NCBI GenBank assembly: GCA_016840855.1
Contig: JAEORO010000141.1
Location: 1-15,909 of the forward strand
Source of the DNA: Candidatus Thorarchaeota archaeon
GTDB lineage: Archaea > Asgardarchaeota > Thorarchaeia > Thorarchaeales > Thorarchaeaceae
Length of the DNA stretch: 15,909 nt
Direction of reading: 5' to 3'
Under the pieces are notes generated by a model. That model was not told the origin of the DNA, searched no databases, and was given only the letters and a program-made list of their open reading frames with translations. The position numbers and the translations under genes were made by a program. This document shows, piece after piece, positions 791-13,561 of the stretch. Each line of letters begins with the position of its first letter. Positions within the stretch are counted from its first letter, which is position 1.

Positions 791-871
791 CGTGTGGTTG
801 TATACAGTCATAAAGTTAGCAAAGCATGAATTTTTGAAATCTGCTCATGGATGGGTAAAGAGGTACACCTG

Positions 872-1903
872 ATGTCGCTTGATAATCGAATTTCGAAGGC
901 CCTTGAACTTTGTGGATTTATATCTGAAGATAGACAGAAGTCACGATCAATGAGTCTCCTGAGCATAATTCTCAAGCTACAAAAAGACCCACCAATTCCA
1001 TTGACATTTTCAGAGATTTATAATCGATTTCAAAAAGAAGACTCGGATAACAAACTCACAAAGGCATGGATTCATAGAGTACTCAGGTCATTGTTAGATG
1101 CCCAGCTGGTACGTGTAGAGAACCCCTCTGCTCACCGTAAGAGGTACATAGCAGATGTCAACACGGTGATGGCAGGACTTGAACAATTGAAGAGTCAACG
1201 AATACATGAACTTGAAACTCAAAAAAATGGGATTGATAGAACGATCGCGGAGGTTGCAAGTCTTGATTGTGGTGATATTGCACAGGCGTTCATCAAAAAC
1301 CTAACCGGAACACGACAAAAAATTAGTTCGAGGATTGTCAGGGGGGTTGATGAGCTTCATAGGGTTCTTAAATTCAATATGCTGGATGTCGCAAAGAAAG
1401 GAGACATTATTCGAGCAACAGCTCTCTGGCTCGGCCCATTTGTTGAAGGAGCTGTAAATCGAACTATGAGATTCATAGAAGTCGCTCAAAGGGGTGTTGA
1501 TGTCAGATACATGCTATCAACACAGGTATTCCAAATTGAAGAGTTAGCCCCTCATGTTACAATCAATATGGACCAAGCGAGGGAAGTCATACACCATCTT
1601 CATATGCTCAGAAAGAGTGGCGTAAAGTTTGATATTCGTATCTATGAAGGGCCAAAAACATACAATCAAGTGAGCATCAATAATGACAACATGGCGTTGA
1701 TAATTGCTGAGGACCCAGTCACTGCCACATGGATCACTCGAGATTTCAATCCAGACTTAATTGACAATGCAGTGAAAGCTTTTGACAGAGACTGGAGAAA
1801 AGCAAAATCGTTTTTGGAGATGACTCCGAAGGACTTGCAAATGTTTGGAGTAGAACCCGGAGGACTAATTAGTAAGCTTACCAGCCGAGATAATAAAGAA
1901 TAA
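872..1903 (+). CDS. TrmB-like regulator (wHTH + coiled coil + PLD-fold effector domain), paralog 1
   Basis: wHTH recognition helix KAWIHRVLRSLLDAQLV, a coiled coil, then IVRGVDEL, KKGDIIR, RGVDVRYM and the C-terminal NPDLIDNAVKAFDRDW. ATG 872 is preceded by GAGGT (860-864); the alternative start is ATG 851. Confidence 0.7.
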   Translation: MSLDNRISKALELCGFISEDRQKSRSMSLLSIILKLQKDPPIPLTFSEIYNRFQKEDSDNKLTKAWIHRVLRSLLDAQLVRVENPSAHRKRYIADVNTVMAGLEQLKSQRIHELETQKNGIDRTIAEVASLDCGDIAQAFIKNLTGTRQKISSRIVRGVDELHRVLKFNMLDVAKKGDIIRATALWLGPFVEGAVNRTMRFIEVAQRGVDVRYMLSTQVFQIEELAPHVTINMDQAREVIHHLHMLRKSGVKFDIRIYEGPKTYNQVSINNDNMALIIAEDPVTATWITRDFNPDLIDNAVKAFDRDWRKAKSFLEMTPKDLQMFGVEPGGLISKLTSRDNKE

Positions 1904-1926
1904 TCAAATCAAATGGGGTATGGAGG

Positions 1927-2838
1927 GTGGAAACTGAACTAAGACACGAAGAAGTGCTTGAAATCATTGGAATGGATAGCACAAAAAAAGACATGGTTAT
2001 TCTTGGAGCGATTCTAAAAGCTCAGAGGGAACCGACAGAGTTCATCGACTTCGAAACTCTTCGTAAGCAATTGGCAAAAGATGAAGGAACAAGAAAAGGG
2101 AAAGATTCCTTGGTCTATAGAAGCCTCTCATGGCTTGAAAAAGAGGGATTTGTGAAGATTGATGACAGTGGTCACAAGCATGGGTACAACTCAAGTGTCA
2201 CAAATATTGAGAGAGCCTTAGAGAAAATCATCAATGATAAGATAGCAGATATGAAGCAAGAGTTGAAACATATTGATTCCGAAGTGACAGAACTATCAGA
2301 TATTAAGCCTGAGGCTCTGGCATCACATTTGATTGATTCGGCTATAGGGAAAAGTAAAATTGAGAAGCCTCTCTTTGCACAGGGTTTTGAGAACATCTTA
2401 AAGCTGCTTGATGACAAGGTGTACAAGGGCCTCAAGAGAGGAGATGTGATAAGGATTACACTTGAGTGGTTGTCTCAAGGAGATTTTTCTAATTCAATAA
2501 GAGTGATGAATGCTGAAAAGCTCGCCAAGATTGGTGTTGAATTCAGAGCTCTTGATCATGATAGGAGCGAGAGAAAAATACGTGAAAAAATGAAACCATC
2601 TATTATAAACTGGCAAAAAGAATACAATACGATTGGTTATAGTATCCTCCCCCGAAAAGATGCAACATATCAATTCGTGGCACGAAACAACGAAGGATTA
2701 GTACTTGTGGTATCTGAGAGCCCTCTATCTGCAACGTGGCTACCAAGAGAAGTAAATCCGGATTTAGTTGATAATGCGATTGATAGTTTCGACGATGATT
2801 ATGTGATGGGAAAAAGTATTCTGGATTTTGAGGGATGA
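1927..2838 (+). CDS. TrmB-like regulator, paralog 2
   Basis: DSLVYRSLSWLEKEGFV (wHTH), coiled coil, AQGFENIL, KRGDVIR, IGVEFRAL and NPDLVDNAIDSFDDDY. GTG start with GGGGT upstream. Confidence 0.7.
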   Translation: METELRHEEVLEIIGMDSTKKDMVILGAILKAQREPTEFIDFETLRKQLAKDEGTRKGKDSLVYRSLSWLEKEGFVKIDDSGHKHGYNSSVTNIERALEKIINDKIADMKQELKHIDSEVTELSDIKPEALASHLIDSAIGKSKIEKPLFAQGFENILKLLDDKVYKGLKRGDVIRITLEWLSQGDFSNSIRVMNAEKLAKIGVEFRALDHDRSERKIREKMKPSIINWQKEYNTIGYSILPRKDATYQFVARNNEGLVLVVSESPLSATWLPREVNPDLVDNAIDSFDDDYVMGKSILDFEG

Positions 2839-3806
2839 ATAAGGTGCCAAGTAGAAAACGCGCAAGCAGTTTCGAAAAACTCGGAGTAGACATTACATCA
2901 AGTGAAATGCAGGTATTCAGAGCAGTCCTAATTGCTGCCGGAGGTATTAACAAACCAGCAAGCTACAATGAGATAGCTACAAGTCTTGAATCAATTGCTG
3001 GTAAGAAGTATACCAAAGCCTACATCTATAGACGACTAAACAGTCTAGAAGAAGATGGGTTCATAATTGTTGACACAATCCATACACCAAGAACATATAC
3101 AGTCACAGAATCGAGTGTCATAAGAGCACTTGAAACAAAAAGGGAGAGAAAATTATTTGAAAGCCTTGCAAAGAGACATGATGTAACTACAAAACTCAAT
3201 CAACTCAATTCAATCCAGAAACAAGAGCTTGCGATAATGTTACACAAACAACTGGTGGGGACTCAATCAATTGATAAATCTCAGGTGATTGAAGGAATCG
3301 AGAATGTTAGAAGCACTATCATTCGAGATTTTGCAGATGCTGCACAAAAGGGAGATCGAATTAGAATTCTGGGTCATGCAAGCACTCTAGCAGAGGGTCT
3401 TGGTCCAGGAGGTGTTACTGAGCTAAAAGTAATACAGGCGGGTTTCAGAGGGGTTAAAGTCCAAGGCCTCCTGACTCCCATTGGACAAGAAGATCTTGAT
3501 TTGAATCTGATGGCTCGCCATTTGACTCCGATGGTTGAGGTCTTTAAACAAGCAACAAAGACTGGTAATATCCAATTGAAACTTACACATGCACCAATTA
3601 ATACCTACAGAATAGTCTGTCTGAATGAGGACAAGATGCTCCTTTATCTTACACATGCAAAAGAATCGGATGTTGCAGCTGTAATCCATCGGGATTACAA
3701 CCCTGGACTCATTGATGATGCTATTAAGACCTTTGACAATCTATGGGGATCTGGTTTAGATGTGCTAGATATGGTGAAGCAAGTGCTGAAGAAGAAGACA
3801 ACTTAG
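2835..3806 (+). CDS. TrmB-like regulator, paralog 3
   Basis: KAYIYRRLNSLEEDGFI (wHTH), IEGIENVR, QKGDRIR, RGVKVQGL and NPGLIDDAIKTFDNLW. ATGA overlap with paralog 2 suggests translational coupling. Confidence 0.72.
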   Translation: MNKVPSRKRASSFEKLGVDITSSEMQVFRAVLIAAGGINKPASYNEIATSLESIAGKKYTKAYIYRRLNSLEEDGFIIVDTIHTPRTYTVTESSVIRALETKRERKLFESLAKRHDVTTKLNQLNSIQKQELAIMLHKQLVGTQSIDKSQVIEGIENVRSTIIRDFADAAQKGDRIRILGHASTLAEGLGPGGVTELKVIQAGFRGVKVQGLLTPIGQEDLDLNLMARHLTPMVEVFKQATKTGNIQLKLTHAPINTYRIVCLNEDKMLLYLTHAKESDVAAVIHRDYNPGLIDDAIKTFDNLWGSGLDVLDMVKQVLKKKTT

Positions 3807-7522: not shown

Positions 7523-7948
7523 TTGATTGCTTTGAAACGTAAGAAGAAACGAGAAACCCTAGACGACGTATCGATTGATTCACTCCTCGACGACTTACTA
7601 AATGATGAAGTCACGCCGGAAACAAGACCAGCGGATGACCCCTGGAGTGAGGAATATCTTGCTAAGCTTCACAAGAAGGAAGCAAGAAGGACTATTGAGA
7701 GATATCGGAAACCCGGACCAATCAGCACAGAAGAACCTAAGTCAAGGTCAGAACAAACGATTGTGTCAGAGAAGATACCTCCGGTGAGGAAGTGCCAGAC
7801 CTGCTATTACAGTAACAAAGCCCGGAAAGTGGGAGGGTCCTGGTGGTGTCACTGTTCGAACCCTGGACGCTCTATAAAGAGTGAATTGCAGATGCGATCA
7901 TGGGTGAAGAGCAGACTGAATCTGCCCTGTTGGAAACTGCCTGACTGA
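7523..7948 (+). CDS. Hypothetical protein: charged disordered N-terminus plus C-terminal Cys cluster (probable Zn or Fe-S binding)
   Basis: 141-aa ORF filling the gap between iorB and the Rab fusion, with Cys pattern C-x2-C-x14-C-x-C-x24-C. Start is TTG 7523 or TTG 7532. Confidence 0.7.
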   Translation: MIALKRKKKRETLDDVSIDSLLDDLLNDEVTPETRPADDPWSEEYLAKLHKKEARRTIERYRKPGPISTEEPKSRSEQTIVSEKIPPVRKCQTCYYSNKARKVGGSWWCHCSNPGRSIKSELQMRSWVKSRLNLPCWKLPD

Positions 7949-7951
7949 AGC

Positions 7952-10255
7952 TCACATTTTCGACTTCTTGTCTTCCTGATGCTTGCGCGCCTCGCGCCAC
8001 ATGACCTCTGCGAGCACTGTGAACATGTCAGCTACACCCTCACCAGTCTTCGCCGAGGACTCCATGTAGAGGAATCCTTGGTCCTCAGCCCAGCGCTTCG
8101 CCTCATCAGAGGGAACTGCTCGGTCGGGCAGGTCGGTCTTGTTACCCACACAGACCATTGGCACACGCATCCCTATAGACTCGTCTGCCTCTTGGACCCA
8201 CTTCGACAGTTCTGTGAATGAACGACGTCGGGTGACATCAAACACCAAGATAATCCCCGCAGCTCCGGAGTAGTACATCTTACGCACTGCTTTGAAACGG
8301 GCTTGGCCTGCCACATCCCACGCCTGCAGCTTGATACCAGTAGCATACTCCTTATCGGGCGGTGAGATCTGCGTCAGTTTGACAGCGAACTGACTTCCAA
8401 TCGTTGTCTTGTAGTCTCGCTCAAACACACCGGTCACGTACCGATTCACGAGCGTTGTCTTCCCGACGGCACCCTCTCCGATGACCATCGTCTTAAACAG
8501 GAACTGATAGGAGTCTGGGGCGGTTCCCGGTTGTGGAGGTTTAGGTTTCCTGCTTCGAATTTCAGCGACAAGTTGACTCTCAACATCGGACACTACAGCA
8601 GCTGTAACGGTCTCTTGCGGAGTCGGCTCAGCTGCAAGAGCCTCAATATCATCAATCTCAGCCATGGCTGCACTTGTTTCTTCGGCACCAAAGAGCTGGT
8701 CAAGGAGCTCTTCTGCTGCTTTCAAGGAATCAGCACTGTCTTGAGCCATTGTGGTATGCAGAATCTCTGAGGCCTTATCTCGCATCTCAGACCCTGCAAA
8801 CCCTGTACCCACAACAGGACCGAATGGAGATGTCGCATCAGGTGGTTCATATGTTTCTGTAGGTTCCATAGTCACTGGTGCAATCGCAGCTGGAGCAGCC
8901 ACCGCAGCGCCTTCTTCGACAAGGATAGCGGTCTCTGGAGTGGTGACCTGTCTGACCTGACCAGCCGCGTCTGTCCACATCAGTACAATAGGTCGAACAA
9001 TTACGGTTCCCTCTTCCTTTGGAGTCATCTGAACCTCAACGCACTTGTTTTCTCCTGGAGCAAGGTCAAAACGCAGTTGTTGCGGATTCACATCCATGTG
9101 GTCTTTGGGGAACCAGTATATCTTGCCAGAAACACCATTGATAGGTTGGTCACTCACATTGTAGACAGTCACTTTTCCTCTGAGTTCTGCGCCAGTTTTA
9201 GTTTCGGGGCTCACTTCGAACTTAGGAATAATCTTGTAGAGACCCTCAAGCACCTTCAACGGACCATCGGAGACTCCGACCTGAACCTCTTTTCTACCGT
9301 CGCCTCCTGCATCTCCAACATTGATGGCAAGAATCTTCTTCCCAATGTCAACCGAGGCCAACTGTTTGAGGTCAGCCATGTGAAGGCTGTAAAAATTAAT
9401 CTTGAAGTCAGAAGTGGCGACAACGATCTCATCTTGATGGTCAGCGTTGAGCTCTTCAATCCGGATTGAGAGTGCCTTCACATTCTCAAGCTTTGAGAAC
9501 AAGTCCAATTTACTCTCTTCATTGCGGTATATACGAATAGAGCCATCATGTGTTACGACGCCAAGCTCCATCTTCCGGTCACCGAGTACATCACCTGCTG
9601 CCACAGAAATAACCGGGCTTGGCAGCTCGATGACTTCTATCTGATCTACTGAGTGATCTCGAACCTTAAACACTCGAAGGGTACGGTCTCGATTTCCTGT
9701 GACAATCTCTTCGATCTCATCACCAATAACGTCACAAGTTCCGATAGCGATGGGCATGTCCTCAAGTTTGTGATTCACAAACTGAGTGATTTTGTTAGCA
9801 TTGTCCATCTGGAGAATTCTCAAGGTGGAGTCACTACCACCAACCATAATCTCGTTCTTCTCATCACCTGTCACGTCGGTGACATAGACCGCTGTGACAA
9901 AGCGATCGACTGGAAACTGAGCTAAAAGTTCGAGTTGTCCACTAGGTGCATAACGGTAGACTTGGACTGTCCCAGCCTCTCCTGGTTTCTCTCCAGGTCC
10001 TATAGCACGGCCAACTACGAGCTCCATTTGTCCATCGTTATTTGCATCAGCAATCTTGATGGAGAGAATACTACCTCCCACATCATGCTGAGCCAGAAAT
10101 GCTATCTCACTCCTATTAGCATCATAAAGACGGAGGACTCCGTCACGTCCGCCTGTACATAATTCAGCGGTACCATTCCCCGTAACATCTCCAACTGCGA
10201 TAGCGCTCGTACTCTCGTCGTCTTCTATTTGGAACAGAACTTTTGGTGAACCCAA
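7952..10255 (-). CDS. FG-GAP-type 7-blade beta-propeller + Ig-like beta-sandwich + low-complexity linker + Rab-like small GTPase fusion
   Basis: Seven ~48-aa repeats with D-x-x-G-D-x-x-x-E loops (aa 23, 70, 127, 175, 222, 268, 315). Beta-sandwich at aa ~340-447 (VTVYN...LAPGE...TP...G). GTPase at aa ~583-755 with GEGAVGKT, TTIG, WDVAGQ, NKTD and SAK. TTG start with GGAAGG upstream. Confidence 0.88.
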   Translation of the reverse strand: MGSPKVLFQIEDDESTSAIAVGDVTGNGTAELCTGGRDGVLRLYDANRSEIAFLAQHDVGGSILSIKIADANNDGQMELVVGRAIGPGEKPGEAGTVQVYRYAPSGQLELLAQFPVDRFVTAVYVTDVTGDEKNEIMVGGSDSTLRILQMDNANKITQFVNHKLEDMPIAIGTCDVIGDEIEEIVTGNRDRTLRVFKVRDHSVDQIEVIELPSPVISVAAGDVLGDRKMELGVVTHDGSIRIYRNEESKLDLFSKLENVKALSIRIEELNADHQDEIVVATSDFKINFYSLHMADLKQLASVDIGKKILAINVGDAGGDGRKEVQVGVSDGPLKVLEGLYKIIPKFEVSPETKTGAELRGKVTVYNVSDQPINGVSGKIYWFPKDHMDVNPQQLRFDLAPGENKCVEVQMTPKEEGTVIVRPIVLMWTDAAGQVRQVTTPETAILVEEGAAVAAPAAIAPVTMEPTETYEPPDATSPFGPVVGTGFAGSEMRDKASEILHTTMAQDSADSLKAAEELLDQLFGAEETSAAMAEIDDIEALAAEPTPQETVTAAVVSDVESQLVAEIRSRKPKPPQPGTAPDSYQFLFKTMVIGEGAVGKTTLVNRYVTGVFERDYKTTIGSQFAVKLTQISPPDKEYATGIKLQAWDVAGQARFKAVRKMYYSGAAGIILVFDVTRRRSFTELSKWVQEADESIGMRVPMVCVGNKTDLPDRAVPSDEAKRWAEDQGFLYMESSAKTGEGVADMFTVLAEVMWREARKHQEDKKSKM

Positions 10256-13082: not shown

Positions 13083-13186
13083 AGCTGGATTACCTCAATT
13101 AACCATCTTTTGAAGCGTATTTTAGGGTTGAGTTTTAGGATTCTCATTCCATCAAATTGATTAGTTCGGAGTTGTATTCCGATGAC

Positions 13187-13561
13187 ATGTCACTCCGAGA
13201 CCGTATCCCTAACCAACTAAAGATAGGGAACGAAGTGATTGCGATAACAATAGAAGATGACATAGCGGTTTATCCAACAAGTGACTACATCCTCCTTGAG
13301 ATATCGCATAATGCCGGGAAAGTTAACATACCCAAAGTCGCAAACACACTTCGAGGTCTAGTTAAGGATGAAAAACAGCTAGTAGCAATTCGTGGTTTTG
13401 GGTTCAAGGGAATCGGACTTGCTGTTCGGGTTGCACATGAATTAAAGGTTCGAGAAAGTAAGTTTGAGTATCAGATGACTTTTGACACATTTGATGCTAC
13501 TGATCCAAAAACTGAACGACCAGTGACCAGTGTTCAAATCATAATCATGCCTCCTGAATGA
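13187..13561 (+). CDS. Divergent Alba-superfamily nucleic-acid-binding protein with N-terminal extension
   Basis: VAIRGFGFKGIGLAVRVAHELK aligns by eye with Alba V.IKARGRAISKAVDVAE, and ERPVTSVQIII with Alba ..NVSTIEIVL. ATG 13187; the alternative start is TTG 13157. Confidence 0.65.
   Translation: MSLRDRIPNQLKIGNEVIAITIEDDIAVYPTSDYILLEISHNAGKVNIPKVANTLRGLVKDEKQLVAIRGFGFKGIGLAVRVAHELKVRESKFEYQMTFDTFDATDPKTERPVTSVQIIIMPPE

Follow-up and report, generated by a model that had tools for sequence, protein, structure and literature searches.

A single-chain fusion of a beta-propeller, an Ig-like domain and a Rab-like GTPase in an Asgard archaeon

The stretch of DNA analysed here, referred to as the window, comprises 15,909 nucleotides of contig JAEORO010000141.1 from a Candidatus Thorarchaeota archaeon (Asgardarchaeota; Thorarchaeia; assembly GCA_016840855.1) and carries on its minus strand a gene in which a beta-propeller, an immunoglobulin (Ig)-like domain and a Rab-like GTPase are joined. 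The gene is a single uninterrupted open reading frame (ORF) of 767 amino acids (aa) plus stop codon with a TTG start, and the Shine-Dalgarno-like sequence AGGAAGG ends 8 nt upstream of this start. A scan for promoters and terminators gave no usable signal, as three promoter-like sites were found and 2.9 were expected. An earlier note on this DNA had described one ORF encoding a propeller, an Ig-like sandwich, a linker and a complete GTPase, and this layout was borne out, with the coordinates being right within a few codons (Table 1). Pfam analysis of the 767-aa protein yielded FG-GAP_3, Beta-prop_BBS7 (59 bits), BBS2_Mid and Itfg2 on the first 340 residues. The AlphaFold2 (AF2) model, built from 55 sequences and with a mean predicted local distance difference test score (pLDDT) of 74.8, consists of 28 strands between residues 6 and 336, an all-beta sandwich at 342–447, a low-confidence region at 451–556 and the G domain at 585–766.

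Table 1. Features of the fusion gene, given in positions of the window
Feature	Residues	Position	Strand	Basis or characteristics
Full ORF: propeller, Ig, linker, Rab-like GTPase		7952..10255	-	ORF, orthologues, pN far below pS
Seven-bladed beta-propeller	1-340	9236..10255	-	each blade with one acidic D-x-x-G-D-type loop; net charge -23
Ig-like beta-sandwich	341-449	8909..9235	-	conserved RPIVLMW and VTTPE motifs
Acidic Ala/Glu/Pro-rich linker (133 aa)	450-582	8510..8908	-	net charge -17; mostly low model confidence
Linker motif SPFGPVVGTGF	476-486	8798..8830	-	[TS]G[FY] in 107/117, SPFG in 51/117
Conserved amphipathic acidic helix LKAAEELLDQLFG	511-523	8687..8725	-	LL[DE]xLF in 115/117
Pre-GTPase proline-rich segment ES..V.EIR.R.PK.P.PG	559-582	8510..8581	-	alignment
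Rab-like GTPase domain	583-757	7985..8509	-	Pfam Ras, PDB matches, G motifs
Short C-terminal tail, poorly conserved, without cysteine		7955..7984	-	cysteine in the last 25 residues in 1/117

The fusion is real. From 123 sequences (the query and 122 homologues), the 117 with a length of 735–830 aa were aligned and the six outside this range were dropped; GTPase motifs stand behind the propeller in all 117 near-full-length sequences, that is, in the query and 116 homologues. The named homologues come almost all from Thorarchaeota, in agreement with the earlier assignment of the protein to Asgard archaea. Furthermore, one contig of run X9, which belongs to another study, corresponds to positions 8063–9119 with zero differences and thereby includes most of the GTPase, the whole linker and part of the Ig domain. 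The whole gene was not spanned by any single contig examined in 4 of the 20 listed runs. Since the X9 contig is identical and all 117 near-full-length sequences are fused, the fusion is not an assembly artefact, and the checks in related genomes and across the linker that the earlier note had proposed thus turned out in its favour. A 234-base joint in contigs of three runs was set aside; one side of it measures 25 bases, and it is probably derived from other GTPase genes. All four regions of the fusion gene are under purifying selection. In nine of nine pairs, the nonsynonymous differences (pN) amounted to 0.02–0.12 in the folded domains and 0.12–0.22 in the linker, compared to synonymous differences (pS) of 0.56–0.80, and the mean column conservation was 0.91 for the G domain, 0.83 for the propeller, 0.82 for the linker helix and 0.80 for the Ig domain.

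A profile of the N-terminal part identified the gene at E < 1e-70 in 56 of the 59 genomes of the host family and in the one genome of the sister family, whereas in 190 other genomes of the phylum, from outside the order, it found no orthologue, and 15 of these genomes gave weak propeller-only matches. By searching with the G domain, one match each at E <= 1e-84 was obtained in 78 of the 87 genomes of the host class, including 23 of the 24 high-quality ones. The fusion gene is therefore single-copy across the host class; for the remaining genomes of the class absence is not established because the missing cases are draft genomes. No signal peptide or transmembrane helix was found in the protein, the highest 19-residue hydropathy being 1.54, and a hydrophobic N-terminus was present in none of the 123 orthologues or fragments compared to 60 of 145 other hits. 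Accordingly, the cytoplasmic nature that had been proposed from the sequence was sustained: the signal peptide or membrane anchor that is typical of extracellular FG-GAP/VCBS and integrin-alpha proteins is absent from the fusion family.

In the model, the propeller has seven blades of four strands in a 1+3 arrangement, whereby its closure by the first strand is predicted from the strand count. The earlier note had counted exactly seven D-x-x-G-D-x-x-x-E repeats. Seven loops in register are indeed present; the literal pattern, however, occurs in only four of them (D127, D175, D222, and D315), and the other three (D23, D70, and E268) are degenerate. A canonical Dx[DN]xDG motif is found solely in the D70 loop (D70–G75), where it is invariant across the orthologues. 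The Ig domain follows with no helix in between, as the strand at 332–336 is connected by five residues to the strand at 342–347 (pLDDT about 87–90). No paralogue of the Ig domain was found in the own genome below an E value of 0.03.

The C-terminal domain is a complete GTPase of the Rab type, as had been stated before. Pfam Ras matches residues 588–751 with 158 bits compared to 47.8 bits for Arf, and the best PDB sequence match is Thor-Rab (7EZB, E 5.5e-44), followed by Rab14. All G motifs are kept, namely GEGAVGKT at residues 593–600 (117/117), YKTTIG at 615–620 (116/117), WDVAGQ at 646–651 (WDxAGQ in 117/117), NKTD at 705–708 (NKxD in 117/117), and SSAK at 733–736 (SSA[KR]T in 115/117), and the catalytic Gln651 is retained. 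The motifs IGSQF, KLQAW, RFKAV, YYSGA, and LVFDVT, which resemble RabF1–F5, are nearly invariant in the alignment. The C-terminal geranylgeranylation cysteines typical of eukaryotic Rabs are absent, and a cysteine among the last 25 residues occurs in one of the 117 sequences. In a midpoint-rooted tree of 11 sampled fused G domains and 23 other GTPases from the own genome, calculated without eukaryotic rows, the fused domains make up one side of a branch with a support of 98/97, which fits a single origin of the fusion. A stand-alone Rab-like paralogue with 50–55% identity to the fused G domain is encoded in genomes G003, G007, G010, G013, G015, G080, and G229, and in the assembly G000 the closest other GTPase reaches 39%. 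In the complete genome G247, a separate Rab-like GTPase gene (L068:4690-5355) is located about 3.8 kb from the fusion gene.

The linker varies in length, with 137–165 residues between the anchor motifs in 113 of the 117 sequences. Within this variable region the F-x-P..TGF motif is kept, and the end of the pre-GTPase segment, KP..PG.P.DSY, is retained even in the distant family member P0123. The short conserved motifs of the linker look like docking motifs. Its PFGPV sequence was also considered as a GAE-binding motif, for which the consensus is DFGxL, and was rejected, as PFG[PD][VLI] occurs in just 42 of the 117 sequences. Taken together, alignment and model show a single chain in which a predicted propeller-Ig module is connected by an acidic linker of about 130 aa to a G domain with all five motifs and the catalytic glutamine.

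The reading that we favour, and to which we give an even chance, is that the fusion functions as a soluble cytoplasmic adaptor switched by GTP, with the propeller-Ig module taking the place of the lipid anchor or the effector. The G domain would cycle slowly between GDP and GTP, similar to Thor-Rab, and would depend on regulators from outside. The propeller-Ig module might serve as a platform for protein binding and be docked to a fixed partner, for example, the tail of a membrane protein or another scaffold, and this docking could stand in for the prenyl anchor and the separate effector of eukaryotic Rabs. The linker would act as a leash that allows the switch to reach GTP-dependent partners, whereby the amphipathic helix 511–523 may be a docking or an autoinhibitory motif. 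Direct binding to anionic lipids appears unlikely because propeller and linker have net charges of -23 and -17, respectively. The origin of the fusion would be a single event in the ancestor of the host class, which joined an Asgard cytoplasmic FG-GAP-type propeller to one Rab-like paralogue. Signal-less relatives of the propeller in Asgard archaea are either stand-alone proteins of some 340 residues, which occur in the own genome too, or carry low-complexity regions and helical C-terminal repeats, as is expected of a movable binding module. This suggests that a movable propeller(-Ig) module has been fused to a Rab in the host class.

Several observations weigh against the adaptor reading. The switch region (595–622) has low confidence in the AF2 model. 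The linker motifs are mostly replaced in the distant member P0123 and thus are not universal. In the family loci examined, the conserved gene order comprises IOR alpha/beta, a DHH protein and a NitT/TauT-type ABC transporter. The genes nearby serve metabolism or transport, and the two that flank the fusion gene are encoded on the opposite strand, so that the context gives no pathway. The present data point to no partner and to no link with membranes.

It might alternatively be that the protein is a one-chain signalling protein with no role in membrane traffic, in which recognition of a ligand, Ca2+ or a partner by the propeller controls the nucleotide state of the G domain in cis, as a product of the domain shuffling that is common in Asgard lineages. 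The acidic loop in every blade and the one invariant Dx[DN]xDG loop would be in agreement with such a sensor, yet the canonical calcium motif is present in only one of the seven loops. No trafficking gene was found near the fusion gene in the loci examined, and the fusion is restricted to one class, which likewise would fit a local shuffling product; Liu et al. (bioRxiv 2020.10.19.343400, section 10) describe multidomain architectures of Asgard eukaryotic signature proteins (ESPs) as mostly lineage-specific shuffles. However, the long, variable and acidic linker suits a leash rather than tight allosteric coupling, and no domain resembling a guanine nucleotide exchange factor or a GTPase-activating protein is present. 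We consider signalling in cis to be rather improbable, at about half the weight of the adaptor.

A further explanation, which we regard as unlikely and place just behind signalling in cis, is that the propeller-Ig module is truly akin by descent to the propeller-GAE part of BBS1/2/7/9 or to ITFG2/KPTN, so that the protein would be an Asgard coat-like subunit with its own GTPase. The G domain would then act as ARL6-GTP does on the BBS1 propeller, and the BBSome and KICSTOR propellers would descend from an Asgard family. The likeness of the propeller to BBS proteins and ITFG2, which the earlier note had recognized, is supported by structure. Foldseek analysis with the full model returned BBSome chains as the top ten matches, ahead of integrin alpha and ITFG2. 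In an unbiased structural search among 48,161 chains, BBS2 was first (Z 34.1, root-mean-square deviation (rmsd) 2.3, 300 residues aligned) and ITFG2 second (Z 33.8, rmsd 2.8, 325 aligned), about 2 Z units ahead of LGI1 (Z 31.9) and an MMS19-CIAO1 entry (Z 31.8). By sequence, ITFG2 is the best PDB match of the propeller, and among the language-model neighbours in the Atlas an archaeal cluster is followed by the BBS2, BBS7, and ITFG2 clusters (0.90–0.93). A profile made from 17 compact propellers without a signal peptide, of which 14 stem from Asgard loci and three are other proteins, found ITFG2 first (E 6e-20) and also BBS7, BBS2, kaptin, and BBS9, whereas a classical VCBS profile placed lectins and CRTAC1 on top and had no BBS chain among its best 60. 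Moreover, BBS2 itself carries Dx[D/N]xDG calcium loops (Singh et al., 2020, PMC7018513), and the text of a 2026 preprint (10.64898/2026.10.28.762692) mentions one structural cluster, “BBS7/ITFG2,” that is confined to Asgard archaea and eukaryotes, without giving its members.

However, this likeness is not specific for the fusion. A control profile from 10 FG-GAP propeller proteins, eight of them with a hydrophobic N-terminus, matched ITFG2 and BBS2 equally well or better (77.9 and 71.6 bits compared to 74.9 and 45.7 bits for the Asgard profile), whereby BBS7 was not listed at E <= 1e-6 and the control is imperfect because its members, of unassigned taxa, were picked from the hits of a profile built in this analysis. 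The Pfam BBS7 cut-off was passed by 20 of the 26 non-orthologous propellers scanned (25 of 150 listed hits and one paralogue), several of them above the 59 bits of the query. Beyond the orthologues, the best library matches were large multi-repeat proteins. When profile A3 was used to search for eukaryotic BBS/ITFG2 proteins, the best 120 of 321 matches were all orthologues or fragments. Searching all six frames with Pfam PF23743 (E <= 1e-8) gave matches in 8 of 81 Asgard genomes and in none of 14 controls but was too insensitive, as it missed the query itself.

The Ig domain does not specifically favour a BBS relationship either. Structure searches with this domain, for which a single-sequence model (pLDDT 71) was used, gave alpha-2-macroglobulin, transglutaminase, TRAP, ApaG, and CARDB as best folds (Z 9.5–11.4), and Foldseek listed no BBS GAE or adaptin ear among its matches. 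The BBS9 GAE domain, the sole BBS GAE or adaptin-ear match, appeared in the wide structural search only; it has the top sequence identity (21%) among the 50 matches listed, which speaks for the BBS relationship, but rank 32 (Z 8.9, rmsd 2.8, 99 aligned), behind generic folds at Z 11.2–11.4 and just before the CEP192 ASH domain (rank 35, Z 8.8). Pfam ASH on residues 353–418 is a weak match (22.5 bits, E 1.3e-4, under the cut-off of 27), and the Atlas search with a best score of 0.82 provides a lead only. The Ig domain shares the broad fold of GAE, with generic Ig folds as its best matches; in the structural comparison that the earlier note had proposed, the propeller is closest to BBS2 and ITFG2 but the Ig domain is not closest to BBS GAE. 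The hx helix, the platform and the coiled coil are all absent, as is an alpha-solenoid, so that a BBSome- or coat-type identity could not be upheld; besides, the GTPase is Rab-like and not Arf-like, and no fusion orthologue was found in the 190 genomes outside the order. The order propeller then Ig also exists in integrin alpha. We read the BBS/ITFG2 likeness as real at the level of a propeller subclass and as no proof of shared ancestry. It would be a speculative and improbable extension that Asgard cytoplasmic FG-GAP-type propellers, some with a directly attached Ig domain, gave rise to the propellers of BBS1/2/7/9 and ITFG2/KPTN and that the fusion is a Rosetta-stone record of a module which worked with a small GTPase before eukaryotes. 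If true, the fusion would be a one-chain model of GTP-gated recruitment of a cargo adaptor, and a true relationship of the propeller-Ig module to BBS/ITFG2 would have a bearing on the origin of BBSome and KICSTOR.

The last explanation, that the gene is an assembly chimera, two genes read through as one or a fusion in decay, could draw on the low-complexity linker, the lack of one contig spanning the whole gene and a gene split over two contig ends in G025, but is as good as refuted by full-length fused homologues in many independent assemblies, the identical X9 contig across the whole linker, the purifying selection and P0123, which is close to the split G025 gene and is full-length fused.

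Among known systems, the fusion can be compared to BBS1/2/7/9 together with ARL6 (6VBU, 6VOA, 4V0M), with which it has in common the N-terminal seven-bladed propeller followed by an Ig-like sandwich, the best structural matches of the propeller, and a small GTPase within the same system. BBS1/2/7/9 consist of a propeller, the hx helix and GAE, with a platform and coiled coil in three of them (PMC7018513). The fusion, in contrast, lacks the helix between propeller and Ig; in place of the platform and coiled coil of BBS2/7/9, which BBS1 also lacks, it has the low-complexity linker and G domain; its Ig domain is not preferentially GAE-like; and its GTPase is Rab-like and in cis, not an Arf-family protein in trans. 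By analogy, the fusion may do with a single chain what BBS1 and ARL6 do as a pair. With ITFG2 of KICSTOR (9O5A, 25GE) it shares a cytoplasmic FG-GAP-type seven-bladed propeller, but the match is confined to this domain and control propellers match ITFG2 equally. Thor-Rab (7EZB/7EZD/7EZE) has similar Rab-like motifs, likewise lacks prenylation cysteines and is reported to show a basal GTPase activity like that of Rab11B (Tran et al., 2024, PMC10933270), whereas it is a single domain of 182 aa and the G domain of the fusion is preceded by 582 residues. OCRL1 binds Rab8a via one helix and the adjacent Ig-like ASH domain (PMC4094338); the weak ASH match of the fusion Ig and the conserved helix downstream in the linker are reminiscent of this, as a lead only, since the ASH score lies under the family cut-off.

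The large animal Rabs are analogous to the fusion in layout only. Rab44, RASEF/Rab45, and CRACR2A/Rab46 have a long N-terminal interaction region and a linker before the C-terminal Rab domain, with EF-hands, coiled coils and prenylation cysteines at the end, whereas such cysteines are missing in the fusion. Two other protein classes were rejected. Roco proteins carry a COR domain directly behind the Roc GTPase; here, this domain is absent and only about 10 residues follow the G domain. For a protocoatomer coat protein, in which an alpha-solenoid follows the beta-propeller, the model contains no solenoid. By these comparisons, the fusion cannot be classed with the BBSome subunits, the protocoatomers, the Roco proteins or the canonical Rabs.

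The caveat of the earlier note that the architecture may appear in Asgard surveys proved justified. Supplementary Data 3 (rows 2130-2131) of Kostlbacher et al. (2026, Nat Microbiol, PMC12962969) contains Thor__MP8T_1__02831 of asCOG cog.003472, with BBS9 (Q6AX60) as best structural hit for residues 11–458 and a Rab-subfamily GTPase (Q01111) for residues 591–782, and marks cog.003472 as an ESP from Liu et al. (2021). This representative has a front of 448 residues, a gap of 132 residues and a terminal G domain, the corresponding values of the fusion being 449, 133, and 185. Since the lengths match and none of the other GTPases listed for the own genome has a similarly sized front region before a terminal G domain, cog.003472 is very probably the fusion family, whereby it is a table entry and the identity rests on the matching layout, not on sequence. 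In the same sheet, ITFG2 is the best hit in six rows and BBS9 in two further Asgard rows; in the main text, a word search found neither BBS, Bardet, KICSTOR or ITFG nor the word propeller. The preprint 10.64898/2026.10.28.762692 places 93% of the catalogued ESPs in clusters common with other prokaryotes. The text of Liu et al. (bioRxiv 2020.10.19.343400), Figure 5a and Table 7 aside, does not mention the fusion. Full-text literature searches yielded no paper that describes it, although the supplements of two bioRxiv preprints or Liu et al. (2021) may list or draw it. As far as searched, the layout and the BBS9 likeness are thus already catalogued in an Asgard survey table and otherwise undescribed.

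In Asgard archaea, Rab-like GTPases come without the lipid anchors and the known effectors of eukaryotic Rabs, which raises the question of how they are localized and which targets they switch. For one of these GTPases, the fusion, which is single-copy and class-wide, offers a candidate platform that is accessible to testing in one recombinant protein. Its value is lowered by the facts that layout and BBS9 likeness are catalogued, that it is limited to one class and that the likeness is non-specific.

The related propellers gave some additional observations. The stand-alone paralogue of about 340 aa is encoded at L028:2343-3446 (G000 C152), L029:7088-8098, L030:7127-8137, and L032:7050-8060, and in all three loci outside G000 a gene that, judged by eye, presumably encodes an actin homologue is situated at a distance of about 4 kb. 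Another Asgard family has proteins of 552–557 aa (L060:5314-6984, L061, L062, and L063), with a BBS7-like propeller (72–78 bits in the two scanned) and a C-terminal region that is charged and contains helical repeats; an Ig domain is not evident in them. The 1021-aa protein P0237 can be aligned to the distant orthologue P0123 from the propeller into the beginning of the Ig domain (residues 4–409, 27% identity, E 2e-27). For the Ig part alone, the score was reached by 7 of 1000 shuffles and four of the five orthologues tried showed nothing, so that the Ig likeness is a lead. Behind the propeller and probable Ig domain, P0237 carries winged-helix repeats that resemble DDRGK/PCI/UFL1, a C-terminal module that is widespread in other Asgard families and that we take to be longin-like, and a zinc ribbon. 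A search of 251 genomes with P0237 gave matches of the C-terminal part, one propeller match and no full-length orthologue.

Finally, some genes around the fusion gene were recognized. Convergent with it, on the plus strand at 7523-7948, lies the gene of a 141-aa protein with a C-terminal cysteine cluster, which is present in L031 and was not seen in the loci of other genera compared. Further away, at 851-3806 on the plus strand, three tandem genes (303–350 aa) look like related winged-helix regulators, the third with a weak TrmB match, and the trio is syntenic in several genomes of the family. A 134-aa protein without Pfam match (13157-13561, plus strand), the C-terminal half of which has, as we assume, an Alba-like look, is encoded next to the fusion gene in the sister family as well, where its counterpart (L026:1354-1770) shows 37% identity.

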